Shown here one piece after another: positions 9,007 to 25,408 of a stretch of DNA of 48,342 bases (positions are counted from its first letter, which is position 1; each line of letters begins with the position of its first letter). Where the stretch lies: IMG/VR virus record IMGVR_UViG_3300029821_000008; one strand, given 5' to 3'. The position numbers were made by a program, and so were the translations under genes. A model generated the notes under the pieces. The model was not told the DNA's origin. It made no database searches and worked only from the letters and a program-made list of their open reading frames with translations. The DNA comes from a virus.

Positions 9007-9752
9007 TTGATTGCTTCATGTTTTTCAATGAAGTTGAACTTCTTGATCTGAGATTAAGAACCTTAAAGGATTATGTTGATTATTTTGTACTGGCAGAGAT
9101 AAATATAACTCATTCCGGCAAGCTAAAGCCATATTATTTTGATGAGTATAAACATCTTTTTGCTGAGTACAATATCATTCACTTAAAAGATATCGCTTAC
9201 CCTCAGTCGAATCCGTGGATAGTGGAAAATGCTCACAGGAACATGCTTAATCATTTTGATTGTGATCCTGATGACTATGTGATAATTTCTGACCTGGATG
9301 AGATCCCGAATCCTGAAAAGATTCATCAGGGAATTGAGCTAGGTTATCACTCATTCGGCTTTCATCAGGAACTGTACTGCTATTATGTGAATTGTAAGTC
9401 ATCTCAGGTTTGGGCCGGATCTGTCTGTACGAAAAGAAAATACATAAAGTCACCTCAGGATGTAAGAAACAATCGTTGTAATCAGCCTTTCAACTTTATT
9501 AACGGCGGCTGGCACTACACTTCAATGGGTGGCAAGGATCGGATAAGGCTAAAGTTTGATTCATTTGCTGAAACTGATTTTAACGTGGATCAATACATGA
9601 ATGATCAAAACCTGGATCAATGTCTACAGACCGGAAAGGATCTAACCGGAAGAACTGAGAGTTGTTTTCAAAAACAGTTTATAACTGAAAGCGAAGTGAC
9701 TCATAAAGAAGTTTTGACATGGAAGAATGATTATCCTGAATTTTGGAAATGA
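8988..9752 (+). CDS. GT17-like glycosyltransferase (beta-1,4-GlcNAc-transferase III-like family)
   Basis: The N-terminus VIDCFMFFNEVELLDLRLRTLKDYVDYFVLAE, together with ISDLDEIPNPE and GGWHYTSMGG, matches my recollection of the GT17 signature. Confidence 0.6.
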   Translation: MVQSKVIDCFMFFNEVELLDLRLRTLKDYVDYFVLAEINITHSGKLKPYYFDEYKHLFAEYNIIHLKDIAYPQSNPWIVENAHRNMLNHFDCDPDDYVIISDLDEIPNPEKIHQGIELGYHSFGFHQELYCYYVNCKSSQVWAGSVCTKRKYIKSPQDVRNNRCNQPFNFINGGWHYTSMGGKDRIRLKFDSFAETDFNVDQYMNDQNLDQCLQTGKDLTGRTESCFQKQFITESEVTHKEVLTWKNDYPEFWK

Positions 9753-10846
9753 GAGTTTTATTAATTAATCCCTGGGAGGGTGAAGTTTTCCCGACTCCTG
9801 CAGTTGGTTATTTACAATCAACTTTAAAGAGTAATGGAATTGAAGTTACTGCAACTGATTTGCTTTACGGGTCAGATGATTACGATTTAGTTGCCGTTAC
9901 TTTTCATTCATTCTCGGTAAAACATGCTCAAAAGATCAGAGAACACTACAAAGGTCGTTTGATTTGCGGTGGTCATCATCCGTCTGCTTTGCCAGAACAA
10001 ATGTTATCAATTGGCTATGATCAGGTAATTGTCGGAGAGGGCGAAAAAGCGATCATGGAAGTTGTTAACGGGAATATTTCAAAAATCATCAAAGGTGAAA
10101 TCTCAGAAATAGATTCAATTCCTTTCCCGGATTACTCAGGTTTGAACTTTTGGGGTACAATGGGAATACCTGTAATTACTTCCCGTGGCTGTCCTTTTTT
10201 ATGCTCATTCTGCGGTTCCACTTCATTTTGGGGCCACAAATACCGTATGCGATCTGCAGCCAATGTTTTGCAAGAGCTTGAATTAAGGGCAAGGGAAGGA
10301 TATAAGACTTTCATGGCTGAAGATGATAATTTCACCGCAAACAAAAAACGAGCTTTAGAAATCTGTTCCGGAATAGCTGAAATGGGAGTTTTCGAGTGGC
10401 AATGTGCTTCCCGTGCTGAATCTCTAGATGAGGAACTTTGCAGGGCTTTAAAATTAGCCGGCTGTAAAACTGTTTGGCTTGGTGTTGAATCTTTAAGCCA
10501 GGAATCACTTGATCGGTGCAATAAAAACACCACAGTTGAAAAGATGCTAAAAGGAATCGAGACAGCCGAAAGATTTGGCATTGAAACTATGTCACAGTTC
10601 ATTGTAGGACTTCCGGGCGACTCAGTGAAGGATATTCAACTCACAGTACAAAACATCCGCAAAAGTTCTATAAAGCGCAAAGGGACAAATATACTTTGGA
10701 TACTTCCCGGAACGGAAGCTTATAGAATCGCAAAACAAAAAGGCTTTAGTGATGAAATATATTTGCAGGATAATTCTTTATTTTATACATTTGAACAAAA
10801 CATGGAGACTTTAAGATATTGGTGTTCGCTAATTGAAAGAGTATGA
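9749..10846 (+). CDS. B12-binding-domain (class B) radical SAM enzyme
   Basis: ATG 9749 forms an ATGA overlap with the upstream stop; the track start 9743 is a TTG. The N-terminal domain is Rossmann-like (MRVLLINPWEG...LICGGHHPS). It is followed by the radical SAM cluster motif TSRGCPFLCSFCGS (CxxxCxxC). Confidence 0.75.
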   Translation: MRVLLINPWEGEVFPTPAVGYLQSTLKSNGIEVTATDLLYGSDDYDLVAVTFHSFSVKHAQKIREHYKGRLICGGHHPSALPEQMLSIGYDQVIVGEGEKAIMEVVNGNISKIIKGEISEIDSIPFPDYSGLNFWGTMGIPVITSRGCPFLCSFCGSTSFWGHKYRMRSAANVLQELELRAREGYKTFMAEDDNFTANKKRALEICSGIAEMGVFEWQCASRAESLDEELCRALKLAGCKTVWLGVESLSQESLDRCNKNTTVEKMLKGIETAERFGIETMSQFIVGLPGDSVKDIQLTVQNIRKSSIKRKGTNILWILPGTEAYRIAKQKGFSDEIYLQDNSLFYTFEQNMETLRYWCSLIERV

Positions 10847-11193
10847 GACTACTGACCTACCTTAAAAATCAACCTTTAATTCTTTGGATTTGGATAAAAG
10901 AAACCAAAATAGTCGGATTCTTTAAATCACTCTGGATATTACTTTTCAATTCAATCAAACAGCCTGCAATACTTCACGGCTATTTTAATGAGTGGTTTGC
11001 CCGTCAGTACAGAGCAAAGAGAGAACTCTATTGGCACAGAACGTGGAACCAGATGGGCAAGGAGCAGTTTATACTTCCTTTTCTTCCGGGAAAATTAATT
11101 GTCTGCTCAAAACTTGAATTGGAGGTCTACAAAAAGAAAGGTTTGATCAGTAAGAACGCATCTATAAGAAAGCTAACAAAAAAGTCATTATGA
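10843..11193 (+). CDS. Hypothetical basic/hydrophobic protein inside the glycan operon
   Basis: 116 aa with ATGA overlaps at both ends. It has hydrophobic N-terminal segments (LILWIWI, LWILLF). No family was recognised. Confidence 0.5.
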   Translation: MRLLTYLKNQPLILWIWIKETKIVGFFKSLWILLFNSIKQPAILHGYFNEWFARQYRAKRELYWHRTWNQMGKEQFILPFLPGKLIVCSKLELEVYKKKGLISKNASIRKLTKKSL

Positions 11194-12071
11194 GGATAGC
11201 AATAGTTGGCTCAGAGGGAAACATAGGTTCACAACTTGTGCCGCATTTAAAAAGTCAGTGGCACGTTATTCATAGATGCGATCAAGTGCAGGGATTCGCA
11301 CCTGATTACTCGGTTGTTAATATTCTCAATTCAGGTGACCTATTAAAGGTTTTCCTGGACTTCGAGCCCCAGGTAACGATCCTGCTTGCTGCAATGGTCA
11401 GCCGGGTAACGTGTGAAGCCTCGCCGCATCTGACAATAGATACCAATCTGACAGGACTTAATAACGTAATTCAGTTATGCAAGGCGTTTGATTCAAAGTT
11501 GGTTTACTTTTCCACATCAGAGGTTTATGGCAATATCGGGGGTGTATTGAGTGAAGACCGGGAATGCAAACCGAATAATTTATATGGACTAACTAAGTAT
11601 TTAGGTGAAAAGTTGGTGCAGTACGAGTTAAAGAATTATTTAATCGTGAGGCCGTTCATGTTTTACCGGGAAGGAGAAAAAACAGGAGAGAATCACAGCG
11701 CAATGATTCGTTTCGCTTATCACCTGTCGAGAAAAGAAAAGATAACTGTTCACAAAGGCTCCCTGAGATCCTGGCTGCATATCTCAGACGGAGTAAGAAT
11801 CATTGAGGCTCTTTTGTATCAGAAAGAATCTCATATTGTGAATATCGGATCAGGAGAACTGATAAGGACTGAATTGCTTGCAGCCAAAATTTGCGCTTAT
11901 TTCAATCTTAAGTATGAAGACTATGTTGATGAATACGAACTGCCTGGCAAAATGACCCTTGAAAAGATACCGGATATTACAAGGCAGACAGAACTCACTA
12001 GATTAATGCCTGAGATTACTCTTGACGAGGGGATAAAAAGAGTTTGTGATAAAATAATTTTGCTTAACTGA
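11190..12071 (+). CDS. NAD-dependent sugar epimerase/dehydratase (extended SDR)
   Basis: Motifs: MRIAIVGSEGNIGSQL (GxxGxxG), FSTSEVYG and YGLTKYLGEK (YxxxK). Confidence 0.8.
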   Translation: MRIAIVGSEGNIGSQLVPHLKSQWHVIHRCDQVQGFAPDYSVVNILNSGDLLKVFLDFEPQVTILLAAMVSRVTCEASPHLTIDTNLTGLNNVIQLCKAFDSKLVYFSTSEVYGNIGGVLSEDRECKPNNLYGLTKYLGEKLVQYELKNYLIVRPFMFYREGEKTGENHSAMIRFAYHLSRKEKITVHKGSLRSWLHISDGVRIIEALLYQKESHIVNIGSGELIRTELLAAKICAYFNLKYEDYVDEYELPGKMTLEKIPDITRQTELTRLMPEITLDEGIKRVCDKIILLN

Positions 12072-12388: not shown

Positions 12389-12976
12389 ATGGCAAAAAAG
12401 AATAAAACTGTTTTAGATGAAGCGGAAGAGTTGTTGGATGACTCCGGTTTAACTGAACGGAATAAAATCTTTTGTCGTGAATATATATTTGATTGGAATG
12501 CAACTCGCTCATATACAATTGCGTACCCTGATGTTAATAGTCCCGAAGCAGCAAGAGCGGCAGCAAGTAGGTTGTTAACTAATGTTAATGTTAAGGCTTA
12601 CATTGAGCTTATTCAAAAGGACTTAGAGAAACTTGCAGGAATCAGCAGAATGAAAGTCATTTCAGAACATGCTAAAATGGCCTTTTCTTCTATTGCACAC
12701 TTACATAATACATGGATAACAAGAAAAGAATTCAATAAACTTACCGATGAGCAAAAAGCATGTATTAAATCAATTGAATCATCAGTAGAAACAAAAAATA
12801 TTGGCGGAAGAAATGCCGCAAATCAAAAATTTATTGATGTTGAAACTGTGAAAATTACACTTTACGATAAGCAAAAGAGCCTTGATGCTATAAATAAGAT
12901 GCTAGGTTATGATGCTCCGATTAAATTTCAGGGCGAATTAACCATTCCGCAATTACCTGATGTAATAATAAGATAA
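12389..12976 (+). CDS. terS: Terminase small subunit (Terminase_2 family)
   Basis: The segment LTERNKIFCREYIFDWNATRSYTIAYPDVNSPEAARAAASRLLTNVNVKAYI is typical of the family. It lies directly upstream of terL with an overlapping stop/start. Confidence 0.75.
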   Translation: MAKKNKTVLDEAEELLDDSGLTERNKIFCREYIFDWNATRSYTIAYPDVNSPEAARAAASRLLTNVNVKAYIELIQKDLEKLAGISRMKVISEHAKMAFSSIAHLHNTWITRKEFNKLTDEQKACIKSIESSVETKNIGGRNAANQKFIDVETVKITLYDKQKSLDAINKMLGYDAPIKFQGELTIPQLPDVIIR

Positions 12977-14418
12977 TGGCAGTAATTGAACAAGAAGTAA
13001 GTAGTCCGCAGAAAGTGATCCTTAGATCAAGGGCATGGATTAACTTGTTTCTTGCAGGTGTTGGATCAGGAAAAACACATTTAGCTGGGATTATCAGTTA
13101 TTGTAATATTAGGAAGTTTTCAAAGATCAGAGGCTTTATCGGTGCAAATACCTATGAGCAATTAAATAATTCCACAATGTTCCGCATCCGGGAATACTGG
13201 AAATCAATAGGACTAACTGAATGGTCAAAAGAAAATCCGAATGGTTTATATGTTGTTGGAAAGCAGCCGCCGCCTCACTTTAAAAGAGATGGTCATAATT
13301 TTGACCGTTATGACAGTATTGTTTCATTCATAAACGGGGGAATAGCTTTCATGGGAGCTTTAGAGAATGCAAAAACACATGAGGGCAAGGAGTTTGGATG
13401 GGCTATTTTGGATGAAACAAAAGACACCAGGGAATCAGATGTTAAAGAAATTATATTGGCCAGGTTAAGGCAAAAGGGAATGTTTAATGAACAGGGTGAA
13501 GAATGGAACCCGCTTTATATTCTTACCTCCCCGGCAAAGGTTGACTGGATCAATGAAATGTTTGAACTGGAAAAAAGTATAGATGAAATATCAGCAAAAA
13601 TATTCTCAGATAAGACTTTTTTTCAAAAAGAGTTCGGAGGTAAATTAGTTACTATATCTTCGACGTATCATAATCAAAAGAATCTTCCGGCTAATTATAT
13701 TCAGAACGTACTGGATAACAATACCGAGGAAAGAGGCAAAGCACTTATTTACGGGCATCCTTTTGTTTCAACCGGCGGAGAATTCTACTCATCCTTTGAC
13801 CGATTAAAGCACGTTAAGACTTTCAAATACGATCCTTCGCTACCTTTACATTTATCATTTGATCAAAACTCAGTGCCTTATAACTCATGCGGGATCAGCC
13901 AGGTTGTTAACGTCAACGGAATTTGGGAATGTAGGTTCATTGACGAAATCGCTTTAGAGAATCCACGGAATTCAACTGAGGAAGTCTGTGAGGAGTTTAT
14001 GATGCGATACCCAAACCATAAAGCAGGTCTATACTATTACGGTGATGCTTCAGGTCACAACCGTACAACAATGAACAAAGATTTCAAGCATCATTATGAG
14101 GTTATTGATTTTAAGCTCAGGAAATACATGAACAATGGATCCGACAGGACTCTGATAAGTAATCCTTCAGTTGTTAGGTGCAGAGATTTTATAAACCTTA
14201 TCTTTGAAGATAAATTGCCTGTAAGAATTTACTTTGATGAGAGTTGCAAAAAGATGATTGCTGACATGATGTACACTAAGCAGGCTCTTGACGGCACGAA
14301 GGATAAGCACATAGTAACTGACAAAGATACAGGCGATAAGTATCAGAAATACGGGCATTTTTCGGACTTACTTACTTATAAATGCGTTGAACTATTTAAA
14401 AACTTTTACAATGGGTAA
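12976..14418 (+). CDS. terL: Terminase large subunit
   Basis: Walker A (LAGVGSGKTH), Walker B (WAILDETKD), and a C-terminal nuclease-like acidic region. 480 aa. Confidence 0.85.
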   Translation: MAVIEQEVSSPQKVILRSRAWINLFLAGVGSGKTHLAGIISYCNIRKFSKIRGFIGANTYEQLNNSTMFRIREYWKSIGLTEWSKENPNGLYVVGKQPPPHFKRDGHNFDRYDSIVSFINGGIAFMGALENAKTHEGKEFGWAILDETKDTRESDVKEIILARLRQKGMFNEQGEEWNPLYILTSPAKVDWINEMFELEKSIDEISAKIFSDKTFFQKEFGGKLVTISSTYHNQKNLPANYIQNVLDNNTEERGKALIYGHPFVSTGGEFYSSFDRLKHVKTFKYDPSLPLHLSFDQNSVPYNSCGISQVVNVNGIWECRFIDEIALENPRNSTEEVCEEFMMRYPNHKAGLYYYGDASGHNRTTMNKDFKHHYEVIDFKLRKYMNNGSDRTLISNPSVVRCRDFINLIFEDKLPVRIYFDESCKKMIADMMYTKQALDGTKDKHIVTDKDTGDKYQKYGHFSDLLTYKCVELFKNFYNG

Positions 14419-14463: not shown

Positions 14464-16215
14464 ATGGATAAAATCACAGCCCTCGAATTACTGAAAAAAG
14501 TAATTAAAGAAAATATAACTCATCAGGACTATGACAGGGTAGTTGAGTTAGCTGACAAGTACTACAAGATGAAAACCGGCGACGGCATTACTGATCTCCT
14601 GTTAAACATGGTCACACGGGAAACGGAAGAGGAGTTCAAGCAAAGATGTGAGATTTCAAAGTCTGTTGTGCCTTCGATTCTTAATTCAACACAACTTCCG
14701 TTTCAGAAAGCATTAAGAAAAACGCCGCTTCTCAGGGAGATTCTTTACAAAGATCAGGACAGGGCGACTGAATTGGAAGAGAATATTGGCACTTACTGGG
14801 GTCAGAAGTCGCTGGAAGAGTATTTGGAATGGGCTGTTATTGATTACAACTACATTGATCCGAACGCTTTTTTGATTACTGAATTTGACGAATTTGATTC
14901 AAATGTCGAAAAGGCCAGTCCTTATCCGTTCATTGCAACATCGGCAGAAGCGATAATGTTTGAGTATAAAAATGAGAACCTTCAATACTTGATTGTCAAA
15001 CTTCCGATAAAGGTACTGGAAAACGGGGTTGAACGGGACGGGGATAAATACACTATGTATCTGGGTGAAGATACTATTCAGCTTACAGAAGTGCCTGCAG
15101 ATACCGCTACTTTGGACGGTGCAGAAGTTTATGAGATCAATTCAAAGTATTATGCTTACCAGGAGTTTGAACCGAAAGCCGATAAAGTGCCAGCTCAGAG
15201 ATTTGGCTATTTAAGGGATTCAGAAACTAAAGGCAGGACGTTTGTATCTGTATTTCATCCTATTCTCTTGCTTCTTGAAAAACTGATGAAAACTGATTCA
15301 GAGCTTGATCTTTCAACTGCTATGACTGCCTTTCCTCAAAGGTTTGCTTATGTTGACAGATGCTCAAACAAAGAATGCAACGGAGGTAAACTTTTGGATG
15401 GTCATACAGTTTGCGGAAATTGTAATGGTACCGGACAACAGCCTTTACATGGTGGAGTAAAAGATGTGATTACGCTGACAATTCCAAGAGATCCGCTTCA
15501 GATGATTGACCTTGAAAAGATGCTGGTTTACAAAGCCCCTCCGATTGACTTACTGATCTTCAATAAAGAGTACATCAATGATCTTCGTATCTTGATTCAT
15601 ACAATGATGTTTAATAACGAAATTGCAACACGTTCAGAGGTTGCAACGGCTGTTACGGCTACGGAAAAGAACTTCGGAGCCGATAATATGAACGACACGC
15701 TTTATCCTTTTGCCCGGAATTACTCCTCACTTTGGGAGTTTGTCGTTACTGACATAGCCACGTTTACGGATTTAAGTGACGGGTTATCAGTTCATCATAA
15801 ATTCCCGAATGACTTCAAAATGAAAGGAATCATTGAACTAATGGGAGAGCTGAAGGTCGCTAAAGATGCAGGGGTAGCCAGTTCTACTATCGCAGCCATT
15901 GAAGATGACATTAATGAGATTCTTTACTCGGACCGTCCGGGTGACTTAAAACGAATCAAAGTTAAATCACTGATGAATCCCTTCAGAGGTCAACCGGAAG
16001 CAACTACAAGACTTTTAATCAGTCAGGGATTAACAACTGAGTTTAATGCTGTACTTTGGTCTAATCTTGAATCTATCTTTAACGACTTAGAATTGGAAAC
16101 ACCTGATATTTATGAAATGAATACTAAGGTAATCAGGGAGAAAGTTAAGGTTAAGACGGATGAGTATATCGCACAGATGAAAGCGGAAGCACCTGAGCCA
16201 CAAAATCAATTCTGA
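14464..16215 (+). CDS. Putative portal protein with an inserted CxxC...CxxCxGxG zinc-finger module
   Basis: A 583-aa ORF immediately after terL, so the call rests on position and size. It carries CSNKECNGGKLLDGHTVCGNCNGTGQQ at 15361..15441. Confidence 0.5.
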   Translation: MDKITALELLKKVIKENITHQDYDRVVELADKYYKMKTGDGITDLLLNMVTRETEEEFKQRCEISKSVVPSILNSTQLPFQKALRKTPLLREILYKDQDRATELEENIGTYWGQKSLEEYLEWAVIDYNYIDPNAFLITEFDEFDSNVEKASPYPFIATSAEAIMFEYKNENLQYLIVKLPIKVLENGVERDGDKYTMYLGEDTIQLTEVPADTATLDGAEVYEINSKYYAYQEFEPKADKVPAQRFGYLRDSETKGRTFVSVFHPILLLLEKLMKTDSELDLSTAMTAFPQRFAYVDRCSNKECNGGKLLDGHTVCGNCNGTGQQPLHGGVKDVITLTIPRDPLQMIDLEKMLVYKAPPIDLLIFNKEYINDLRILIHTMMFNNEIATRSEVATAVTATEKNFGADNMNDTLYPFARNYSSLWEFVVTDIATFTDLSDGLSVHHKFPNDFKMKGIIELMGELKVAKDAGVASSTIAAIEDDINEILYSDRPGDLKRIKVKSLMNPFRGQPEATTRLLISQGLTTEFNAVLWSNLESIFNDLELETPDIYEMNTKVIREKVKVKTDEYIAQMKAEAPEPQNQF

Positions 16216-16901
16216 TGGGAAAATTTGCAAGCAGAGATTCAACAGGAACGCCCGTTGCATGGGGCGACATAACAGGGAAGCCCTCGACATTTGCCCCGAT
16301 AGTTCATGACAATACGGCTCATAGTCCTGCTTATGCTCCCATTGCTAATCCCACGTTCACAGGGACCGTAACAATAGCCTCAGAGTTAAGAATCACAAGT
16401 CCTGGTAATGGGATATTTGGAAGTCTTTTGGATGTATCTTCTCAGAAACTTGAAGCAGGATCAACGGCAGGATATAGGTCAGCAGTTGAAATTTACGGAG
16501 GTTCATCGAGTCCGGCAAATACAATTAAATTTCTGACGGCTTCAACAGAGAGGACAAAGGTAGATAATAATGGATTGTCAGTTTTTGGGAGGGCAACTAT
16601 CGAAAAGGCAGACGGTGCTTCAAGCATTATCCAGATTTTAACAAATGACGGCGGAGCAAATAATGAATATTTTGCCACATATAATATGGCAGATGATTTT
16701 TTGTTTGTATCTAATAAAAACGGAGGCGGTACTGTTAAGAATATTCATTTTGGCCTGGGTGGTAGTGATACCATTGCTACGAGTGCAAAGGTGACAATTC
16801 TTGCAAATGGAAACGTAGGCATTGGAACCACGTCCCCAGCAGAAAAACTTCACGTCTCGGGTAATGGACTATTTACAGGCGATGTAATTTGTTACGGATA
16901 A
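16215..16901 (+). CDS. Tail-fibre-like protein
   Basis: The N-terminal motif VAWGDITGKPSTFAPIVHDNTAH and the C-terminal motif GNVGIGTTSPAEKLHVSGNG are both common in phage fibre proteins. Confidence 0.55.
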   Translation: MGKFASRDSTGTPVAWGDITGKPSTFAPIVHDNTAHSPAYAPIANPTFTGTVTIASELRITSPGNGIFGSLLDVSSQKLEAGSTAGYRSAVEIYGGSSSPANTIKFLTASTERTKVDNNGLSVFGRATIEKADGASSIIQILTNDGGANNEYFATYNMADDFLFVSNKNGGGTVKNIHFGLGGSDTIATSAKVTILANGNVGIGTTSPAEKLHVSGNGLFTGDVICYG

Positions 16902-16942
16902 TATAGTACTGGCGTTTACAAATATTTGAGTATCTTTATAAT

Positions 16943-17317
16943 ATGAAAATATCAGCTATATATAAAATTCAAAGTAAATTAAAGCCTGAACGGTGCTATG
17001 TTGGCAGTGCCGTTAATATAAATTCAAGATGGGAAGCACACAAAAGGACTTTAAGATTAGATAAGCATCATTCACAGCAACTTCAGCGACATGTAGGTAA
17101 GTATGGAATTGAAGATTTAGTATTCATAATTATTGAGCCGTGTTTCCCGGAGTTTTTAATTATTCGTGAGCAATATTATATTGACACATTAAAGCCTTAC
17201 TTCAATTCCTGTAAAATCGCAGGGAGTACATTAGGTATCAGATATAAATTATCGGAAGAAACAAGAAAAAAAATAAGTCTTGCATTAAAAGAAAGAAAAT
17301 TTAAATTAGTATCTTAG
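16943..17317 (+). CDS. GIY-YIG homing endonuclease
   Basis: Motifs: AIYKIQS...CYVGSAVNINSRWEAHKR...REQYYID (GIY, YIG, Arg and Glu). The C-terminal region SEETRKKIS is NUMOD-like. Confidence 0.85.
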   Translation: MKISAIYKIQSKLKPERCYVGSAVNINSRWEAHKRTLRLDKHHSQQLQRHVGKYGIEDLVFIIIEPCFPEFLIIREQYYIDTLKPYFNSCKIAGSTLGIRYKLSEETRKKISLALKERKFKLVS

Positions 17318-17319
17318 TT

Positions 17320-18783
17320 ATGGCTGTCTTACCAAATACGGATTTGGCATTAAGTGATGTAAGGACTAAGTTAGGATATTCTGCTGATTGGTCTTTATTT
17401 AATATTGGCATAAGTAATTTGGTGAATAGGTGGAGTAAATACAAAACTGTTCGGGCATATGGAACAGGTGCGAATATACACGAAAGAGGCAAAGACGATG
17501 CAGGTTATTGGGGTTTTAATTTCTCAGGGTCGAATCCTGACAAATGGGATTATTTAAAACCCAGGGGCGGCGAACCAGGAGGTGCAATATCAGGATATGA
17601 TGAACCTGTAAGGCTGGGTGACTTCCGAGGCTATGAACATGACAGAACACTAGCTTATCCTTCAATTCAATGCCGGGATACTGACAACGCATGGGATGCT
17701 AATATTTATCCTTCCGGCACTCCTTATCTTCAGAGATGGTATTGCAGGGCGCATCGTAGTGCATCTTCCGTCATTATCATTCCTTCTGATCTTAATTACG
17801 GGGCGACTAATTTTGATGATCTTTATGTAGGGTTGTGGATAAATGCAACCGGAGGTCCGTGGTATAAAACATTTGGACAGGTAAAGGATCTTACCTTTGC
17901 AAAGAGCTGGAATATGTCAATCAGTTGTGAAATTACTACATGGATCGGCGAGTATCCTGCTTACGCTAATTTCCCGTATCATATTGGAAATGTTGATTGG
18001 AAAGTGATTCTTTCAACAGGGGCTGCATCCAATTGGACCGCTTCAGTTCCAGGATCGATTATTTATTTTACAGGAATCACCGAAGGCGGTAGTCCTGACA
18101 CATGGGACACTGACGGTACGAACGTTTATATTAATGCCGGATCTTTTACTATTCATGACTGGCTGAAGGTATCTGATAATGCGCTTATTCACGGAGCAGG
18201 AGGTGAGGCGGAAGATATTACTGTTTATTGTTCTTACGCTGGAGGCCCTCCTGACTGGACGGCTGCGGTAATAACGGGAGGCACATGGATAACACTCGCC
18301 TGTAATGATGACGGCACTCCGGTTAACTGCAACCTGGTTCAAAGTGGATTCAATACAAGAGTAACAACTGACGCAATTCCGGATGTAAGTTCTGTGACTG
18401 TTTATAAGGACGCCTCAGATAGTTACGATTGGGTATTGGTATCGGAGAGCGGAGATGTTGACCCAAAGTTAGAGCGTGACGGACTTGTGAGGGTGACATC
18501 AAATTCAATCACTCAGGACATTACAGTCAGTCAGGGTTACGCCGGAGACACTGCATTAACATTCACTTACAAGACAGACACAGACGGTGTTGACTTTCCT
18601 CCCTCGAACGGGACAATAGAATATGTAGTCAAGAGAGGCGCAACTCAGGTCTATCCCTCATCGGGATGGGCAACAGCTAGCGGGCAGAGGGCTGGTGTTG
18701 ACAACACTGTTAACATTGCTGATATTGGAGAAACTGCTTTAAATACGGATTATTCTGTTTATATTCGCTTAGTATTAATTTAA
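17320..18783 (+). CDS. Hypothetical virion/receptor-binding-like protein
   Basis: 487-aa ORF rich in Gly, Thr, Trp and Asp, following the fibre-like gene. No enzymatic motif was recognised. Confidence 0.4.
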   Translation: MAVLPNTDLALSDVRTKLGYSADWSLFNIGISNLVNRWSKYKTVRAYGTGANIHERGKDDAGYWGFNFSGSNPDKWDYLKPRGGEPGGAISGYDEPVRLGDFRGYEHDRTLAYPSIQCRDTDNAWDANIYPSGTPYLQRWYCRAHRSASSVIIIPSDLNYGATNFDDLYVGLWINATGGPWYKTFGQVKDLTFAKSWNMSISCEITTWIGEYPAYANFPYHIGNVDWKVILSTGAASNWTASVPGSIIYFTGITEGGSPDTWDTDGTNVYINAGSFTIHDWLKVSDNALIHGAGGEAEDITVYCSYAGGPPDWTAAVITGGTWITLACNDDGTPVNCNLVQSGFNTRVTTDAIPDVSSVTVYKDASDSYDWVLVSESGDVDPKLERDGLVRVTSNSITQDITVSQGYAGDTALTFTYKTDTDGVDFPPSNGTIEYVVKRGATQVYPSSGWATASGQRAGVDNTVNIADIGETALNTDYSVYIRLVLI

Positions 18784-18793
18784 AAACCAAACA

Positions 18794-19051
18794 ATGAAAA
18801 GATTATTCGGAATTTTAATGCTCATGTTTTTTGCGCTCGTAATGAGCTGCGAAAAGGACAAATGTTATGTCTGCGAAACACGTACAGATGTAGGAACTAC
18901 GTTAGAGGCCTCGACTTCAAAGGATGTTTATCTGAGTGAAATGGAAATTGGCCCCAGGTTCTACGAAAGTCAAAACAGTTCAGTTGTAGTAAAAGACATT
19001 GGAGGCGGCCCATACTACTCGCAGACAATAACCAAATGCAGGGAAAAATGA
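18794..19051 (+). CDS. Lipoprotein (possible superinfection-exclusion or surface-modifying moron)
   Basis: Signal peptide MKRLFGILMLMFFALVMSC with a lipobox-like V-M-S-C. Confidence 0.6.
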   Translation: MKRLFGILMLMFFALVMSCEKDKCYVCETRTDVGTTLEASTSKDVYLSEMEIGPRFYESQNSSVVVKDIGGGPYYSQTITKCREK

Positions 19052-19239
19052 AAGTAGTCGCTGTAAAACCAGAAGACTGGAAAAAACTAACTGAATATGT
19101 CGAGGATCTCAAACCGTCTTTTTATAAAGCAGAAAAGGCGGTTGAGATTCAGGCTATATTCCGTTCGGCAATAGTTGTTGAATTGCAGGAACAAAAAGCA
19201 GAGCCGGAAGTTAAACCGGAATCAAAAGATGAGATTTAG
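19048..19239 (+). CDS. Hypothetical acidic protein
   Basis: ATG 19048 forms an ATGA overlap with the lipoprotein stop and is in frame with the track ORF 19036..19239. Confidence 0.45.
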   Translation: MKVVAVKPEDWKKLTEYVEDLKPSFYKAEKAVEIQAIFRSAIVVELQEQKAEPEVKPESKDEI

Positions 19240-19828
19240 TATTATTTGCCCCAGCCGTCTTATCCCATACCCCGGATGTGCCTCGTATTTGGATCAGAAA
19301 ATAGTGAGAGCTATTGAATCGGTACTATCTCAGAGCTTTACAGACTTTGAATTGATAGTCATTGCGGATGGGTGTATAAAAACAAATGCTATTATAAGCA
19401 TGAATTTTGCTGACAGTAGGATAGTTTTGCTCGAATGCAAGCACAAAGCGATATTTGACAATTTACCTCGTAATACAGGCATTGAAGCGGCCAAAGGTGA
19501 ATATATCATTTACGTTGATGCTGATGACTATTGGGGGGAAGATCATTTAAAGAAGATCGAAAAGAATCTCTCTAATTATGATTGGGTCTGGTACAATGAT
19601 ATTATCTTCAATGGAGAGTGGATCGAAAGAGCTTGCAATATCAAAAGCCTTGGAGGTTGTGGAACGTCAAACGTGTGCCATAAAAGAAGTCTTAATTTGC
19701 GTTGGGGCCGTCCGGGTTACGCTCATGACTTTCACTTCTTGCAGCAGCTTTTAAGATTTCCGAATAACACTAAAATAGAAACACCGGAGTATTTTTGTTG
19801 TCACATCCCTGGAAATTATGATGTTTAG
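19229..19828 (+). CDS. Family 2 glycosyltransferase
   Basis: ATG 19229 gives MRFSIICPSRL...; the track start 19175 is a TTG. Motifs: FELIVIADGC and YIIYVDADDYW (DxD). Confidence 0.7.
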   Translation: MRFSIICPSRLIPYPGCASYLDQKIVRAIESVLSQSFTDFELIVIADGCIKTNAIISMNFADSRIVLLECKHKAIFDNLPRNTGIEAAKGEYIIYVDADDYWGEDHLKKIEKNLSNYDWVWYNDIIFNGEWIERACNIKSLGGCGTSNVCHKRSLNLRWGRPGYAHDFHFLQQLLRFPNNTKIETPEYFCCHIPGNYDV

Positions 19829-19830
19829 CT

Positions 19831-20010
19831 ATGTATAATGTTTTACCGACAAATGATTTAAAAAAACATTCAGAGAATTCAACTTGTGAATGTAAACCGA
19901 AAGTAATCTATGAAAACGGTGAAATGATTATTATTCATAATTCATACGATGGTCGGGAATATAAAGAAAGGTTAATTGAAGATATTAAACAACAAATAAA
20001 ATTACAATGA
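19831..20010 (+). CDS. Hypothetical small protein (59 aa, below the track cutoff)
   Basis: ATG 19831 to TGA 20008-10, with an ATGA overlap onto the next gene. Product: MYNVLPTNDLKKHSENSTCECKPKV...IIIHNSYDGREY. Confidence 0.45.
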   Translation: MYNVLPTNDLKKHSENSTCECKPKVIYENGEMIIIHNSYDGREYKERLIEDIKQQIKLQ

Positions 20011-20228
20011 GTACAGGATGGGAAAATCATGAACCAGCTCCAATGGAGTTTTTTCATAGCAGATTAATGCATTATTTTCATGAATTTAGGCTATTAAAAA
20101 CTGAAAACATTGAAGTTAAGATGGATGGGAGTGATTTCAGTGAAATAGTAGTTAAGGCCAAAAATGAAACCTATGCTAAATACCCAAAGCAAAAACTTCA
20201 GGAGCCTATCTTAAAAACTGATATGTAA
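20007..20228 (+). CDS. Hypothetical protein
   Basis: 73-aa ORF, tightly packed between its neighbours. Confidence 0.45.
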   Translation: MSTGWENHEPAPMEFFHSRLMHYFHEFRLLKTENIEVKMDGSDFSEIVVKAKNETYAKYPKQKLQEPILKTDM

Positions 20229-20843
20229 ATGAAAATAGCAGCAGTAACAATCACTTACAATCGATTAGAGTTGACCAAAAGAACAATCGATAGTTTTTAC
20301 AGTAAGACAAATGTAGATTATCATCTCTTTGTCGATAACGGAAGCTCAGACGGCACTCAGGACTATTTAAAGAGTAGGTTTGATCATATCTTCTTGGATC
20401 AGAACTACGGTATAACAGAAGCCTTTAAAACAGCTGTGGAGCGATTAACAGACTTTGATTTTATCCTTAAACTCGATAATGATATTGAAACGGTCACAGA
20501 CGACATCTTAAATAAGATGCTGAACTTTTACGAATTGAACGGATTAAAGTATGTTTGTTCACCGGTCGATTTGAATTTGGACCCTAATTATGCGCCACGT
20601 TTAACTGGAAAAGGAATGTTACACGGTTTTAATGTGAGCTACGTTTCTCATACCGGCGGGGCTTTTCAGTTAATCCCTATTGATATTTGTCTGAAGTTAA
20701 TGGAAGATTACCGCAACTTTAAACTCGGTGATCAGGCTATTGGAGGTTTTTATAAATCTCAGGGATATAAACCTGTTTATCTTTTAGATTTGGAAATGAA
20801 ACATATTGGATTGAATCAGTCAACTGGAAATTACATACTATGA
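20229..20843 (+). CDS. Family 2 glycosyltransferase
   Basis: Motifs: MKIAAVTITYNR, LFVDNGSSDGT and ILKLDNDIE (DxD). Confidence 0.75.
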   Translation: MKIAAVTITYNRLELTKRTIDSFYSKTNVDYHLFVDNGSSDGTQDYLKSRFDHIFLDQNYGITEAFKTAVERLTDFDFILKLDNDIETVTDDILNKMLNFYELNGLKYVCSPVDLNLDPNYAPRLTGKGMLHGFNVSYVSHTGGAFQLIPIDICLKLMEDYRNFKLGDQAIGGFYKSQGYKPVYLLDLEMKHIGLNQSTGNYIL

Positions 20844-21073
20844 CATACAATATTAATACAGTCGAAAAGACTATTGAAATTATCGGGGAATATTCTGTAA
20901 AAGAACTGTTATCCCTGCTTAATAGTTTAACTGAATCAAAGATCATTGATGAGGAATACAAAGTTAAGGCGGAATTAATTTCCTATCCGTATTATCCCAT
21001 TATTTATCCCGTGCAACCGCAATATCCATATTATCCTACTTATCGCATAGAATGGAATCCATATAAACTATGA
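20840..21073 (+). CDS. Hypothetical protein with a Tyr/Pro-rich C-terminal tail
   Basis: ATGA overlaps at both ends. The tail reads SYPYYPIIYPVQPQYPYYPTYRIEWNPYKL. Confidence 0.5.
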   Translation: MTYNINTVEKTIEIIGEYSVKELLSLLNSLTESKIIDEEYKVKAELISYPYYPIIYPVQPQYPYYPTYRIEWNPYKL

Positions 21074-21720
21074 CCTACGACCTCATAATAATATCCCAGA
21101 GCAAAGGCGACTTAATCAGGGTTACCCAGCAGTGCATTGATTCAGCTCGGAAAGATAATGCAGAATTGAATATCATTGTCGTGGAAACCGGTGATCCTTA
21201 TCCTTACCATGTAGATAAGATCGTAAAATACGAAGGAGAATTTAATTACAATAAGGCTTTAAATCTTGGTTTGCAGTATGCCAAATCAGACTATCAGGTA
21301 CTTTGCAATAACGACATTATCTTTCATTCCGGATGGTCAAAGATGGGTGACATAATGAAAGTGAATGAGTATTTATCCGCTTCCGCACTATCAAATGATC
21401 AGAGGCAAAGTATCTGTAAAAAAGGAAATGTAGCGTATGAAGGTTATGTGATAGGGATTCACTTGACAGGGTGGTGTATATTCACTGCAAAAGAACTCTG
21501 GCCGCTGATTGGTAAGTTAAGCGAAAAACACCGTTTCTGGTTCTCTGATAATGTGTATGCGGATCAGTTGATTCAGGCAAAGATTAAACACGCTCTGATT
21601 TGCTCTATTCAAGTTGATCATTTGGGAAGTCGGACCTTGCAGAAACAGCCACGGAATGTTCAGCAGTTATATACATATTCACAGGGCCGGGCTGTCAGGG
21701 AATTTAAAAGTATAAGATAA
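21070..21720 (+). CDS. Glycosyltransferase, GT2-like
   Basis: Motifs: YDLIIISQSKGD..., LNIIVVETGD, YNKALNLG and VLCNNDIIF. This matches the general layout of the GT-A fold. Confidence 0.55.
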   Translation: MTYDLIIISQSKGDLIRVTQQCIDSARKDNAELNIIVVETGDPYPYHVDKIVKYEGEFNYNKALNLGLQYAKSDYQVLCNNDIIFHSGWSKMGDIMKVNEYLSASALSNDQRQSICKKGNVAYEGYVIGIHLTGWCIFTAKELWPLIGKLSEKHRFWFSDNVYADQLIQAKIKHALICSIQVDHLGSRTLQKQPRNVQQLYTYSQGRAVREFKSIR

Positions 21721-21956
21721 TGCCAAGGACAAAGAACATAGAGAAAACAATACCTAAGCTTTACAGACGAAAGTTTGAAGATGTGGCATTGCTTTTTTAT
21801 GTCCGTGGTCAGGTATCTATAATGCCGGCTGTCACTATTGAGAAAGCTATAATTAACTTTTTTCGAGAGATAGGGGACGAAGATTATAACCTGGAATCAG
21901 CTATAACGACTTATATGAATCTTAAAAAGGAATATTTTGATCTATTAAGAACATGA
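21720..21956 (+). CDS. Hypothetical protein
   Basis: 78-aa ORF that starts at the last base of the upstream stop codon (TAATG overlap). Confidence 0.45.
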   Translation: MPRTKNIEKTIPKLYRRKFEDVALLFYVRGQVSIMPAVTIEKAIINFFREIGDEDYNLESAITTYMNLKKEYFDLLRT

Positions 21957-22906
21957 AAACGCCACGTCGGATAACAGAGATATTAAATCGCAAACAGGAA
22001 TTTATAGACCTTAATCGGGATAAGTTAGAGGCCTCTGTTATTAAACTTCAGGACCGGCTTTTAAGCGACCTGCTCTCAGAGTTAATTCCTCAACTGGATA
22101 TTAAAGACGGAGTGATTACAGATAACGTAAAGAATTACCGTCTGCTTTCAGGGCTGGATAAGATTTACACAGATTTTACAGTCGTTTCAAATTCTATAAT
22201 CACTTCACAGGTCGTAAAAGTCACTACGGGACTGACTGAGATAGGAATGGAGTATTTTAAAATGGTACTCAATGAAGATATGCTCAGCAGGTTTGACAGG
22301 GTTGTAAGTTCTACCGTGAATAAAATGAATCTTCGAATAGGAATAAATAGCAAGGGCACAATCAAAGGCGGCTTCCTGGATTCAATCATTAAAGACCCGA
22401 CCGCTGCAACTTCTATTAAAAACTATGTCTCTAAATCCGTAACAGGACAGATTGATTCAAAAGAGTTCATTAAAGGACTGAGTAAATTAGTGACAGGAAA
22501 TAAAAAGACCGGACTTCTGGAAAGGCAGTACCAGCGATACAGTTATGATTTATATCAACAATATGACCGTGCTTACAATGTTTCGCTGGCTCAGGAGTTT
22601 GACATGAAGTATTTCCTTTATCAGGGCGGCTTAATTGAAGATTCAAGGGATTTTTGCGTTGCTCACAATAATAAAGTATGGTCTGTTGATGAGGCTGCTG
22701 ATTGGGATAGATGGATGCCTTGGATGGGTGAATACCCTCCGGACTATGTTATTAAAGGTGACCCATATGTGATACCTAGTTATTTGGGTTACGCAGGTTA
22801 TCAGCCATTGATTGACTTCGGAGGGTATAATTGTCGTCACGGGATCGGGTTCATTTCTGATGAACTTGCAATGCAATTAAGGCCGGAACTTAAGGGAAGT
22901 GAATAA
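21953..22906 (+). CDS. Head morphogenesis protein (Mu F / SPP1 gp7-like)
   Basis: C-terminal motifs DSRDFCVAHNNKVWSVDEA and GGYNCRHG resemble the D.RTC..C...G and NCRC signatures of the family. Confidence 0.6.
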   Translation: MKTPRRITEILNRKQEFIDLNRDKLEASVIKLQDRLLSDLLSELIPQLDIKDGVITDNVKNYRLLSGLDKIYTDFTVVSNSIITSQVVKVTTGLTEIGMEYFKMVLNEDMLSRFDRVVSSTVNKMNLRIGINSKGTIKGGFLDSIIKDPTAATSIKNYVSKSVTGQIDSKEFIKGLSKLVTGNKKTGLLERQYQRYSYDLYQQYDRAYNVSLAQEFDMKYFLYQGGLIEDSRDFCVAHNNKVWSVDEAADWDRWMPWMGEYPPDYVIKGDPYVIPSYLGYAGYQPLIDFGGYNCRHGIGFISDELAMQLRPELKGSE

Positions 22907-23322: not shown

Positions 23323-23507
23323 TGCACGAAATCACATCAAAGAAAACCGGCAAAATTCAGATAGTATCTGATGAAGTCTGGGATAACGTCGTTGCACGTG
23401 GATGGGGAAAGAAATACAATCATACCGTACTAAAGGAATACAAACTCAAAGAGGTTCCTATTATACCCGCAGAAGTAAAAACCAAAACAGTTAAAAAAGA
23501 TGGATAA
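23319..23507 (+). CDS. Hypothetical protein
   Basis: 62-aa ORF with an ATGA overlap. Confidence 0.4.
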   Translation: MMHEITSKKTGKIQIVSDEVWDNVVARGWGKKYNHTVLKEYKLKEVPIIPAEVKTKTVKKDG

Positions 23508-24378
23508 AAAAATTGATGCGCAAGCATTTGAGGCATTTGCGGTGAAAGCCTTTAAACTCACTACTGAGGACTTGGCCAGCCTTTATAATGAAGCCGGAGA
23601 ATTGACAGACTTTTCTTTAATAGAGCGCAAAGACACCGAAAGGATATCGAAACTTTCAACCGAGAAAAACAACCAGTATAACAGAGGCTTAAAGGAAGGG
23701 GCCCTGAAACTGGAAAACGCCCTCAAAGAAAAGTATGAAGTCGAATCTGATTTACTGGGGATCGAATTATTTGATCATGTCATTGAAACAAAGGTCTCAG
23801 AAGTGCAGAAGGCCGCACCGGAGGAAGTTCTAAAACATCCCGAAGTTATAAAGGCCCTGAACGAAAAAGATAAGGTATTAAAGGCTAAGGACAAAGAATG
23901 GCAGCAGAAGCTTGACGATAAGGAAAGTGAAATAAATGCTGCTAATCTCTTCAAAGAGGTCGAATCCGTTGGATTGGCCGAGTTTGAAAACCTTAATCCT
24001 ATCCTTCCCGAGGATGCACGTAAGTCTAAGGCTCTGAAAGATGTTCTTGTGGGTGATTTGAAGAAATACAAGTACCAGAAAGACGCAGACGGGTTTATTG
24101 TCCTGAAAGAGGACGGAACACCGCTACAGGATGCACACGGTAATAATGTAAACTTCAAAGATCACATTAAGGAACACGCCGAAAGGTATTTTGATTTTAA
24201 AGCTGCTGAAGATCGTTCCAGTGCCGGAAATAAAGGTACTAACGGACAAGCTCAGGGCAAAAAGATCAGAGCACCAAAAGACAAAGCAGATTATGTTACA
24301 ATGATGGGAGACAATACTTTGACACCGCAGGAGCGAGTTGCTATTAAGAATTTAGCAGTCGCAGCAAAGATTGTTTAA
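23500..24378 (+). CDS. Putative scaffolding protein
   Basis: 292-aa highly charged protein that looks helical, lying immediately upstream of the capsid gene. Confidence 0.5.
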   Translation: MDKKIDAQAFEAFAVKAFKLTTEDLASLYNEAGELTDFSLIERKDTERISKLSTEKNNQYNRGLKEGALKLENALKEKYEVESDLLGIELFDHVIETKVSEVQKAAPEEVLKHPEVIKALNEKDKVLKAKDKEWQQKLDDKESEINAANLFKEVESVGLAEFENLNPILPEDARKSKALKDVLVGDLKKYKYQKDADGFIVLKEDGTPLQDAHGNNVNFKDHIKEHAERYFDFKAAEDRSSAGNKGTNGQAQGKKIRAPKDKADYVTMMGDNTLTPQERVAIKNLAVAAKIV

Positions 24379-24394
24379 CATTATAAATTGAAAA

Positions 24395-25408
24395 ATGAGC
24401 CAAATTGCAACTATTGATTGTGGATACCTCGCAACCGTTCAGGCTATGGCCGATGAGTTGTGGATAGATCCGATAAAAAACATTGACCTCATAGCCGACG
24501 CCGAAAGCGCAAGGGCTGTTCTTGAAAACCAGCAGGTACGTATGGGTGAACTTCAGGTAAAAGACAAAAAGAAAGTCGTTTCCCTTGAATGGCTCACTGC
24601 ATGTGATGCTGATACTACTTCCTGTACTGATGACTGTTCGATTGACGGTGATGACGCTACTCCGGAATGCCGGGAGTATGAAATTGCCTGTCTTCAGGAA
24701 TCAACCTTTAAAGTAGGTGACAGAGTATACAGGGAAAAGACCATTAACCCGGCTGAATCTATTGCTTTCAATCTTGAACGCCGGAAGAAACTTCTGGATG
24801 AATGGATAGCGCAGTATATCATAACCGGACTTGTGGCTAATGCAGGCACTAACGCCTTCACCGGATCGCCGGGAACCGTCGCTGCTGCTCTCACTACTAT
24901 TCCCGCTGGCAACTGGAACGACAATATCTGGGGTTACTTTGCAAGGACAGCACGTGGGAATAAATTTGCTTCCCCGTATGCAATAACCGGAGATAATCTT
25001 TTCCAGCTTATTTATAACCGTCTGGCTGATTTTGCCAATGCTAATGGTAAAGGAAATGTGAATCGTATGGGTGACCTTCGTAACAGGATGTATCTTGATC
25101 CTGAGAACGTCGAAGCGATTGCCGCTGGCTATACCTTTTTACTGCACCGTACCGCTGTTGCTTTCGTTGGCAAGAGCTGGTATCCACTTGGAGCCGCTAA
25201 CGCTGTACAACTGACAGCAGACCGCATGGCATGGAGTGAAATGTCAAGAAATCTCCCGGGTATATCTTACGATGTATTCACCGAGAGGACTTGCGTCAAT
25301 AACGAGTACTACACTGCCTTTAAGGTACAGCTTCACGGGGTGTTTGCTCTGAATCCTACTCCTTGCAGTGAAACCAATACAGGTATACTTGCATTTTCAT
25401 GTGTTTGA
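24395..25408 (+). CDS. Putative major capsid protein
   Basis: 337 aa. The call rests on its position after the scaffold gene, the strong terminator that follows, and its non-charged globular composition. Confidence 0.6.
   Translation: MSQIATIDCGYLATVQAMADELWIDPIKNIDLIADAESARAVLENQQVRMGELQVKDKKKVVSLEWLTACDADTTSCTDDCSIDGDDATPECREYEIACLQESTFKVGDRVYREKTINPAESIAFNLERRKKLLDEWIAQYIITGLVANAGTNAFTGSPGTVAAALTTIPAGNWNDNIWGYFARTARGNKFASPYAITGDNLFQLIYNRLADFANANGKGNVNRMGDLRNRMYLDPENVEAIAAGYTFLLHRTAVAFVGKSWYPLGAANAVQLTADRMAWSEMSRNLPGISYDVFTERTCVNNEYYTAFKVQLHGVFALNPTPCSETNTGILAFSCV

Follow-up and report, generated by a model that had tools for sequence, protein, structure and literature searches.

The subject of this analysis is the interval between the portal gene and a head-morphogenesis gene of the Mu-F/gp7 type in the viral DNA recorded in IMG/VR as IMGVR_UViG_3300029821_000008 (48,342 nucleotides; this whole stretch is called the window below). 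Three glycosyltransferase (GT) genes lie in this interval. Twelve open reading frames (ORFs), all on the + strand, fill it, most of them with overlapping or directly adjoining start and stop codons. An initial annotation made from the letters of the DNA alone had listed twelve ORFs between the two genes, and all of them were recovered at the same coordinates. Its gene identities (a fibre-like protein, a GIY-YIG endonuclease, a lipoprotein and three GT2-like proteins) are borne out by Pfam and PHROG matches, a signal peptide and the modelled fold of the third GT, and its count of five GTs in the genome stands when the two upstream genes at 7721-8485 (GT2) and 8988-9752 (GT17-like) are included. 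The genes of the interval and their neighbours are the following:

12389-12976, + strand: terS, matching PF03592.
12976-14418, + strand: terL.
14464-16215, + strand: portal gene (phrog_7376, E-value 2e-12), the left anchor of the region.
16215-16901, + strand: fib228, a fibre-like protein with weak tail-fibre PHROG matches, whose start codon overlaps the portal stop codon.
16943-17317, + strand: GIY-YIG homing endonuclease (PF01541, E 2.9e-8; phrog_314, E 2.7e-19).
17320-18783, + strand: unk487, an all-beta multidomain protein in its AlphaFold2 (AF2) model.
18794-19051, + strand: lipo85, a small lipoprotein with a signal peptide and Cys19.
19036-19239, + strand: s67, a small, non-conserved ORF (0 homologues in the sampled loci) that runs into the start codon of GT_a.
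19229-19828, + strand: GT_a, GT2/GT-A glycosyltransferase (PF00535, E 1e-12).
19831-20010, + strand: s59, a small ORF conserved in 5 loci.
20007-20228, + strand: s73, a small ORF conserved in 0 loci.
20229-20843, + strand: GT_b, GT2 glycosyltransferase (PF00535, E 6.7e-11).
20840-21073, + strand: s77, a small ORF with 0 homologues in the sampled loci.
21070-21720, + strand: GT_c, GT-A glycosyltransferase (phrog_22332, E 3.8e-27).
21720-21956, + strand: s78, a conserved 78-amino-acid protein with no family match.
21953-22906, + strand: MuF317, a divergent Mu-F/SPP1 gp7-like protein of 317 amino acids, the right anchor.
23500-24378, + strand: p292, a coiled-coil scaffold-like protein.
24395-25408, + strand: p337, a 337-amino-acid putative capsid protein.

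We are highly confident that the region consists of two parts with different histories, a core cassette at 19229-21956 and a strain-specific filling of a hotspot at 16215-19228. The comparison set comprised 36 distinct related loci, de-duplicated, each bearing a portal gene and at least 3 kb of sequence 3' of it. In 33 of them the gene order is portal, 0-2.6 kb of variable sequence, GT_a, (GT_b), GT_c, s78 and MuF; two of the remaining three loci end too early to tell and the third, L024, is without the cassette. All 33 informative relatives, with portal identities of 54-85%, carry both GT_a and GT_c. GT_a starts no more than 100 nt from the portal stop codon in 13 relatives, so portal-GT_a-GT_b-GT_c-s78-MuF is the basic arrangement. 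GT_b is found in 26 of the 33 relatives and missing in seven; its slot holds a different GT2 in L002 and a weak DXD-glycosyltransferase-like ORF in L005 (E 0.0035, below the Pfam cut-off), and is empty in L032. The small protein s78 lies between GT_c and MuF in at least 29 loci and is not present in the GT-less loci L024 and L025; a word-based search for its homologues returned only relatives at least 77% identical. In L024, whose portal protein is 35% identical, the MuF homologue follows 96 nt after the portal gene with no GTs, and L025 is similar (range 96-290 nt).

Both anchors of this comparison are divergent proteins. For the portal protein, IMG/VR holds 110 relatives, of which 80 were retained (33-85% identical). 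MuF317 itself gave no Pfam (E ≤ 0.1) or PHROG match. Among its homologues the top family is PF04233 (Phage_Mu_F), which 3 of 18 match with a best E-value of 3e-4 and which weakly supports the assignment. The motifs DSRDFCxxHNNKV and GGYNCRH are invariant, and the gene is placed before p292 and p337 in the window and directly after portal in L024 and L025; motifs and position together agree with MuF317 being a divergent protein of the Mu-F/gp7 type. When MuF317, GT_c and p337 were searched as profiles against PDB sequences, no match rose above chance level.

Across the relatives, the identity of the GTs to the window copies tracks the identity of portal, MuF and p337 (Spearman rho 0.64-0.87). 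The GC content of the three GT genes is that of the genome mean. By GC and GC3 content, nothing in the region stands out as foreign other than the AT-rich homing endonuclease (GC 0.31 vs 0.378 for the genome) and s59; the high GC content of unk487 is absent at third codon positions (GC3). The correlation with the head genes, the genome-like GC content, the invariant motifs described below and the co-occurrence of s78 point to vertical inheritance and purifying selection. The stretch 19229-21956 has been inherited vertically as a core part of the head-assembly operon and is not an insertion in this phage.

The initial annotation had taken the whole 5.7 kb as one recently acquired accessory or moron island that splits portal from Mu-F. 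It was right that the two genes are normally neighbours, as they are in L024 and L025 (96-290 nt apart), and the portal-to-MuF distance of the window, 5.7 kb, is the largest seen. The lack of any counterpart to the left 3 kb and the presence of a homing endonuclease would also suit a single island. However, the right 2.7 kb from GT_a to s78 keep the same order in 33 of 33 informative relatives, diverge with the head genes and have genome GC, and the left part is itself composite: the fibre N-terminus is typical of the clade, the tip and its lipoprotein are foreign, and a homing endonuclease is present besides. The description as an accessory island can thus be retained for the strain-specific stretch 16215-19228, while for 19229-21956 it is refuted by synteny in the relatives; as an account of the entire interval we consider it scarcely credible. 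Broken canonical synteny in such a region is no evidence of a recent island. The cassette may either have entered between the portal and Mu-F-like genes in an ancestor of the clade or have been lost in the distant lineage.

GT_a, GT_b and GT_c are soluble, single-domain proteins of about 200 amino acids. Measured against the Pfam GT2 cut-off of 23.3 bits, GT_a (48.7) and GT_b (42.8) pass and GT_c (17.3) fails. The AF2 model of GT_c (predicted local distance difference test score (pLDDT) 86.9, predicted template modelling score (pTM) 0.84) shows a single GT-A fold. Foldseek returned 467 PDB matches for this model at E ≤ 1e-3, the top ones being WrtF, ppGalNAc-T1/T2, K4CP and RmlT with template modelling (TM) scores of 0.65-0.70; the best is the fucosyltransferase WrtF (E 1.6e-9, TM-score 0.69). 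The best BFVD matches are A0A218M8R0 (TM-score 0.80) and a glycosyltransferase of Gordonia phage Sixama (TM-score 0.83). Invariance of the catalytic motifs was assessed over 42-51 distinct sequences: the YxDxDD motif of GT_a (D-A-D-D) is invariant in 51 distinct sequences, and the DNGSxDGT and LDND (D-N-D) motifs of GT_b are likewise invariant. None of the three enzymes has a transmembrane segment (maximum 19-residue hydropathy 0.96-1.32), and genome-wide no ORF has more than two hydrophobic segments, so that the genome encodes no polytopic membrane protein and none resembling GtrA, GtrC, Wzx or Wzy. With the genome complete, as described below, this rules out that the phage has its own pathway of the Gtr or Wzx/Wzy type.

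Among 50,697 GenBank phage records, tblastn found homologues of GT_c only in phages of Gordonia (22 records) and in Cluster J phages of Mycobacterium (6 records), with identities of 29-35%. LittleE carries four glycosyltransferases and a kinase between its capsid and head-tail connector genes, Yvonnetastic two glycosyltransferases just upstream of terL, and Sixama two between the head-tail adaptor and the major tail protein; the Ronaldovirus group, with its GT_c-homologue genes in the right arm, is the sole such exception. For Cluster J, a structural operon interrupted by 8-10 genes of unknown role has been described (Pope et al. 2013, PMC3706429). As in Omega and LittleE of this cluster (gp15-21), Yvonnetastic (gp24-25) and Sixama (gp91-92), several GT-A genes interrupt the virion-assembly operon of the window, and S-adenosylmethionine (SAM) methyltransferases accompany the GTs in the window genome too. 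Unlike these actinobacteriophages, the window phage has a putative host among the Bacteroidales, and its cassette is situated between portal and MuF instead of between capsid and connector.

The kinship extends to individual domains. GT_c is homologous to the C-terminal domain of LittleE gp17 (hhalign 99.8%, residues 185-374), of Yvonnetastic gp25 (99.7%, residues 214-409) and of Sixama gp91, and it matches positions 186-374 of 408 in phrog_22332, a family grouped here with the two-domain enzymes Omega gp16, Yvonnetastic gp25 and Sixama gp91, to which GT_a has no match. GT_a aligns with LittleE gp15 (94%) and with the N-terminal domain of Yvonnetastic gp25 (81%, residues 3-169). GT_b and both upstream GTs matched none of these actinobacteriophage enzymes in hhalign. 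Because GT_a and GT_c match opposite domains and K4CP is among the structural matches of GT_c, the two look like the split halves of a bifunctional, two-domain glycosyltransferase of the chondroitin-polymerase type. The fused two-domain architecture was not encountered in the window: GT_a is encoded by its own gene, 1.2 kb upstream of GT_c, and GT_b intervenes. Separate genes, an exchangeable third GT in the middle and the s78 partner set the cassette apart from the two-domain enzymes of the actinobacteriophages.

Virion glycosylation by phage GTs has been demonstrated for Che8, Corndog and Myrna, where capsid and tail-tube proteins are modified (Freeman 2023, summarised in PMC12363180). Che8 gp108-110 are three tandem GTs of 391, 232 and 211 amino acids, similar in number and size to the window cassette. 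In Che8 the genes are located at the genome's right end, whereas the window cassette is in the head module, and glycosylation is demonstrated for the Che8 type, whereas for the window we infer it from the genes. In chlorovirus PBCV-1, the cytoplasmic GT-A domains of about 200 amino acids in A064R, A111/114R and A075L, together with a sugar methyltransferase, attach a virus-specific glycan to the major capsid protein independently of the host. PBCV-1 differs in being a eukaryotic giant virus with dispersed genes.

A second set of sugar genes is found directly upstream of terS:

7721-12071, + strand: sugar operon encoding a GT2, a TylF-like O-methyltransferase, a GT17-like protein, a methyltransferase-like radical SAM protein that binds B12, p116 (an ORF of 116 amino acids) and an RmlD-like short-chain dehydrogenase/reductase (SDR), as assigned by Pfam and NCBIfam.
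7721-8485, + strand: the GT2 of this operon.
8988-9752, + strand: its GT17-like (GnT-III-like) gene.

Each of these genes occurs in only 0-8 of the sampled loci, in differing combinations and positions, and the upstream operon is a truly accessory, patchy glyco-module. In L007 and L018, a methyltransferase gene separates terL from portal. None of the sugar enzymes received an equivalog-level assignment in NCBIfam or, hence, a sugar identity.

The window starts and ends with an exact direct repeat of 127 bp (1-127 and 48216-48342) and is therefore a complete phage genome, terminally redundant or circularly assembled, of about 48.2 kb. All recognisable genes are carried on the + strand. In the GenBank phage records the region had no match by megablast, nor had portal or MuF by tblastn, so this collection contains no isolated relative. 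IMG/VR holds many relatives of the window phage. A search across 185,579 species genomes gave one hit, a 20.5-kb contig of a metagenome-assembled genome labelled Bacteroidales bacterium UBA8908; on the basis of this one label, the clade of ~48-53-kb phages probably infects Bacteroidales. GT_c has 206 homologues; the 120 clusters listed include no contig above 72 kb, and the long ones are mostly of ~50 kb. This size limit and the single hit in the species genomes argue against a prophage lifestyle. A tyrosine integrase/recombinase gene is nevertheless present at 36467-37414 (phrog_1, E 2e-31), on the same strand as the other genes and directly 3' of the tail genes. Pfam and PHROG scans of the genome ORFs recognised no repressor module, and neither tRNA genes nor Rfam families were found.

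We propose that the cassette serves to glycosylate the virion. GT_a, GT_b and GT_c would be expressed late, together with portal, MuF, scaffold and capsid, and would use host nucleotide sugars in the cytoplasm to build a short glycan on a virion component, which would be the capsid or some other structural protein that is conserved. Differences in this glycan from strain to strain would then be generated by the swappable GT_b and by the patchy operon upstream, with its methyltransferase, radical SAM protein, SDR and two GTs. Virion glycosylation is the most economical mechanism in view of the position in the head operon, the co-divergence with head genes, the solubility of the enzymes, the lack of partners for DNA modification or export and the kinship with GTs of structural modules. 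The case for a virion substrate is strengthened by the universal conservation of the cassette, its co-divergence, the absence of internal terminator-like sites above chance and the homology to actinobacteriophage structural-module enzymes. Blending the architecture of the region with virion glycosylation into one figure, we arrive at a probability of roughly 0.55. For late, soluble enzymes that glycosylate a virion component, considered by themselves, the chances appear slightly short of even. Somewhat more tentative still is the suggestion that the clade glycosylates its own virions by means of a split GT_a/GT_c pair and an exchangeable third GT, with strain-specific virion 'glycotypes' arising through the GT_b slot and the upstream operon.

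Several observations weigh against virion glycosylation. Late co-transcription is something we infer from the gene packing and the lack of terminator-like sites above chance; the scan concerned, which covered 7-27 kb and found neither promoters nor terminators above shuffled expectation, used a tool that models no Bacteroidota promoters. In GT_c an invariant N-N-D takes the place of the canonical DXD where the equivalent strand ends, which could reflect either a variant motif or a metal-independent mechanism. The candidate acceptor p337 is a putative capsid protein by position only, since it has no Pfam, PHROG or PDB-sequence relative and Pfam scans of its homologues were uninformative, and comparison of the p337 proteins of the clade with that of the GT-less L024 revealed no clade-specific Ser/Thr-rich acceptor extension. 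In the related actinobacteriophages, we found no evidence for glycosylated virions of Cluster J, Yvonnetastic or Sixama. As to the enzymes of proven function, the best hhalign match between window and Che8 is that of GT_a to gp108 (48.9%, E 1.8e-4), all others reach at most 7%, and tblastn with GT_a, GT_b and GT_c gave no Che8, Corndog or Myrna match among the matches listed. Judged by these comparisons, the window GTs are not specific homologues of the proven Che8 enzymes and resemble them at the GT-A superfamily level only. Finally, host glycans that are lipid-linked or wall-linked can also serve soluble GT-A enzymes as substrates, and the integrase gene would permit a temperate lifestyle with host-directed functions.

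The last two points lead to remodelling of the host envelope, in which the GTs and the sugar operon would alter capsular polysaccharide, lipopolysaccharide or a lipid-linked intermediate during infection or lysogeny. The effect would be a block to superinfection, or progeny that do not readsorb to debris, with prophage TarP (wall teichoic acid) and O-antigen-converting phages as parallels. Apart from the integrase gene, this explanation can draw on the names of the PHROG matches of GT_a and GT_b, which are GtrB-like O-antigen conversion proteins, on best NCBIfam neighbours among exopolysaccharide, teichuronic acid and colanic acid glycosyltransferases (all far below the cut-offs), and on the nucleotide-sugar and sugar-methylation enzymes of the upstream operon. 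Lipoproteins also recur at the neighbouring hotspot (lipo85, L089, L038). The matches of GT_a and GT_b to GtrB-like PHROGs are weak, however, and run through the GT2 nucleotide-binding half. Unlike the GtrA/GtrB/GtrC cassettes, the window GTs have no C-terminal transmembrane helices, and there is no GtrA flippase, no GtrC and no Wzx- or Wzy-like polytopic membrane protein in the genome. Genes for conversion tend to be variable morons close to attachment sites; the window cassette is core, lies away from the integrase and attachment site, and sits inside the portal-MuF-scaffold-capsid operon, with which it co-diverges in 33 of 33 informative relatives. The single-strand gene layout, the lack of a recognised repressor module and the absence of any sign of integrated prophages (GT_c homologues on contigs of at most 72 kb among the 120 clusters listed, one hit in 185,579 species genomes) also speak against it. 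The related earlier idea, in which lipoprotein and GTs together form a lysogenic-conversion moron island, finds no support as a unit: lipo85 travels with unk487, and the genome has no membrane partner of the Gtr or Wzx type. Overall, we regard remodelling of the host envelope as unlikely.

Hypermodification of DNA was also considered, with the GTs glycosylating 5-hydroxymethylcytosine (5hmC), 5-hydroxymethyluracil (5hmU) or 5-hydroxycytosine (5hoC) before packaging and thereby evading restriction. Its appeal lies in the position beside the packaging genes, since the cassette is directly downstream of terS, terL and portal. DNA-glycosylating GT-A enzymes are common in viromes and sometimes adjoin terminase and structural genes, with epimerases and secondary glycosyltransferases, but for the hydroxyl acceptor to be made, the known pathways need either a thymidylate-synthase homologue or a 5mYOX/TET enzyme with a cytosine methyltransferase (bioRxiv 10.1101/2023.12.21.572611; PMC13326640). 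Pfam and PHROG searches of most ORFs of at least 100 amino acids found no thymidylate-synthase homologue, no 5mYOX/TET and no C5-methyltransferase, only a fragment of an N6/N4 methylase, and no phage DNA polymerase or nucleotide-metabolism module was found. The closest homologues in isolated phages, moreover, belong to actinobacteriophage structural modules. DNA hypermodification is accordingly a very improbable function of the cassette.

Virion glycosylation, our preferred reading, joins features that are known with others that are new. GT clusters inside phage structural modules are known, as is virion glycosylation; new here are the host phylum, the position between portal and MuF, the split domains with an exchangeable middle gene and the s78 partner. 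The only demonstrations of phage-encoded virion glycosylation known to us concern a few mycobacteriophages, where it shields particles from antibodies. If our proposal is true, the window clade would provide the first case outside the actinobacteriophages, and one GT lineage would have been recruited repeatedly into head modules across phyla. A diverse and environmentally widespread clade, probably with a Gram-negative Bacteroidales host, keeps three GTs in its head operon, which suggests that glycan-coated virions may be far commoner than appreciated. With three enzymes of ~200 amino acids, a 78-amino-acid partner and a handful of candidate acceptors, the cassette also offers a compact test system.

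The left 3 kb have a different character. fib228, unk487, lipo85 and s67 have 0 homologues in any clade relative among the sampled loci, and the post-portal site itself is a recurrent cargo hotspot across the relatives. At least 10 distinct relatives have, as the first gene behind portal, one that shares with fib228 an N-terminus of the MG(R/K)(Y/F)AS type (MGKFASRD in the window; MGRFASKE, MGRYASYE, MSGYASRD and MSYASKD elsewhere) and then runs into hypervariable, repeat-rich, fibre-like sequence of 93-750 amino acids, sometimes followed by 1-2 further ORFs. Other relatives fill the site with a DUF5131 radical-SAM-like gene, a small lipoprotein (L089, L038) or nothing. DUF5131 (phage Gp37/Gp68, radical-SAM-like, with the signature GWYxWAWxPVxGCxHGCxYCY) replaces or adjoins the fibre gene in many relatives, such as L019:6852-7433, L040:7233-7814, L018:5472-6059, L010:12182-12736 and L119-L133. 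The small lipoproteins or secreted proteins of L089 (a 98-amino-acid ORF at the portal stop) and L038 (3988-4416) are unrelated to lipo85 (MKQILILFLLLTAC.., MNKLLLIIILCFSS..), so lipoprotein cargo recurs independently at the hotspot.

The origin of the window's own filling can be traced further. The unk487-lipo85 pair recurs in an unrelated phage (L044-L047) at 78% and 56% identity, again with the lipoprotein gene immediately behind its partner; in that phage a tape-measure protein, a 270-amino-acid protein and an 879-amino-acid tail protein come before the pair, which lies at the end of the tail module. The lipo85 signal peptide ends in ..ALVMSC, and the L044 homologue has the canonical lipobox LASC. 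The unk487 family has 24 members; four unrelated phage lineages, including a crAss-like one, carry a homologue at the tail module's distal end. Distant homologues are present in L156 (a siphovirus-like contig), L157 (a prophage) and L158 (a crAss-like phage), the last of which shows that the family crosses very different tail architectures; in L158:6620-13948 the homologue lies between the genes for the Ring protein (PF24228) and the muzzle protein (PF25731). The AF2 model of unk487 (pLDDT 80) consists of tandem beta-sandwich domains, and the protein is probably a distal fibre or tail-tip component. Fold searches with this model gave only generic tandem Ig/FN3-like matches (TM-scores 0.1-0.2) and no specific PDB match, so an assignment as receptor-binding protein was not adopted.

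The C-terminus of fib228 (..TGDVICYG) matches the ends of proteins encoded just upstream of unk487 homologues (..KGDVICYGV, ..GSLMVYSS, ..GTLMIYSV). Together with the clade-typical N-terminus, this leads us to read fib228 as a chimera of a clade-specific N-terminal anchor and a C-terminal adaptor that belongs with the unk487 tip protein. On this reading, the adaptor, unk487 and lipo85 came from the tail-fibre module of an unrelated phage, and the GIY-YIG homing endonuclease lodged later between the fibre and tip genes. The resulting fibre could be located either at the head/neck or on the tail. We also considered it as the sole acceptor of the GTs and rejected this, as at least 13 relatives keep the GTs without a post-portal fibre gene. 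In that unk487 and lipo85 move together, usually at the distal end of a tail module, they resemble the receptor-binding protein-lipoprotein pairs of the T5 pb5/Llp type; unlike these, the window pair is in the head module behind portal, is combined with a clade-specific fibre N-terminus and has no sequence or fold match to them.

The GIY-YIG gene fills the gap between fibre and tip genes exactly. It scores 34.3 bits against the PF01541 cut-off of 22.6, a NUMOD3 match is weak (E 0.014), and a sigma-70-like site with 11 of 12 matches is found at 16915-16942. Copies with 42-64% identity occur at other sites in L007, L018, L026, L033, L041, L046 and L047, which include relatives as well as unrelated phages; in L007 and L018 they lie upstream of terL. 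The exact position in the gap, the AT-richness, the sigma-70-like site and the scattered copies characterise a typical free-standing homing endonuclease. Like the free-standing GIY-YIG genes of T-even phages, it occupies an intergenic slot between two co-adapted genes and has scattered copies in relatives. The left half thus illustrates modular fibre evolution, with a clade anchor, a foreign tip plus lipoprotein and a homing endonuclease between co-adapted genes.

A number of further features of the genome were noted. Several putative homing or HNH endonuclease genes are present, at 38041-38850 and 44089-44604 in addition to 16943-17317. A second radical SAM protein (phrog_9298, 41780-42604), unrelated to the sugar operon, is encoded beside an exonuclease (43136-44035) in the early/replication region. 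An ORF of 108 amino acids at 47470-47796 matches the C-terminal part only of an N6/N4 DNA methylase model (133-191 of 221) and may be a truncated or split methyltransferase. At about residues 300-324, the portal protein contains an invariant four-Cys insertion that resembles a zinc finger of the DnaJ type, CxxCxGxG (C300, C305, C317, C320, G322, G324), and that is kept even in 33-35% identical relatives; a 354-amino-acid protein encoded at 6543-7607 also matches the DnaJ_CXXCXGXG model. p337 is unusually cysteine-rich, with at least nine invariant Cys across the clade and L024. One clade member, L043 (ENA ERZ25039554 contig_22356, 72 kb), has its terL, portal and GT_b regions split into short ORFs, probably through assembly errors of the frameshift-prone long-read type, and was left out of the comparisons owing to these fragmented genes; it carries three extra glycosyltransferases upstream of terS.

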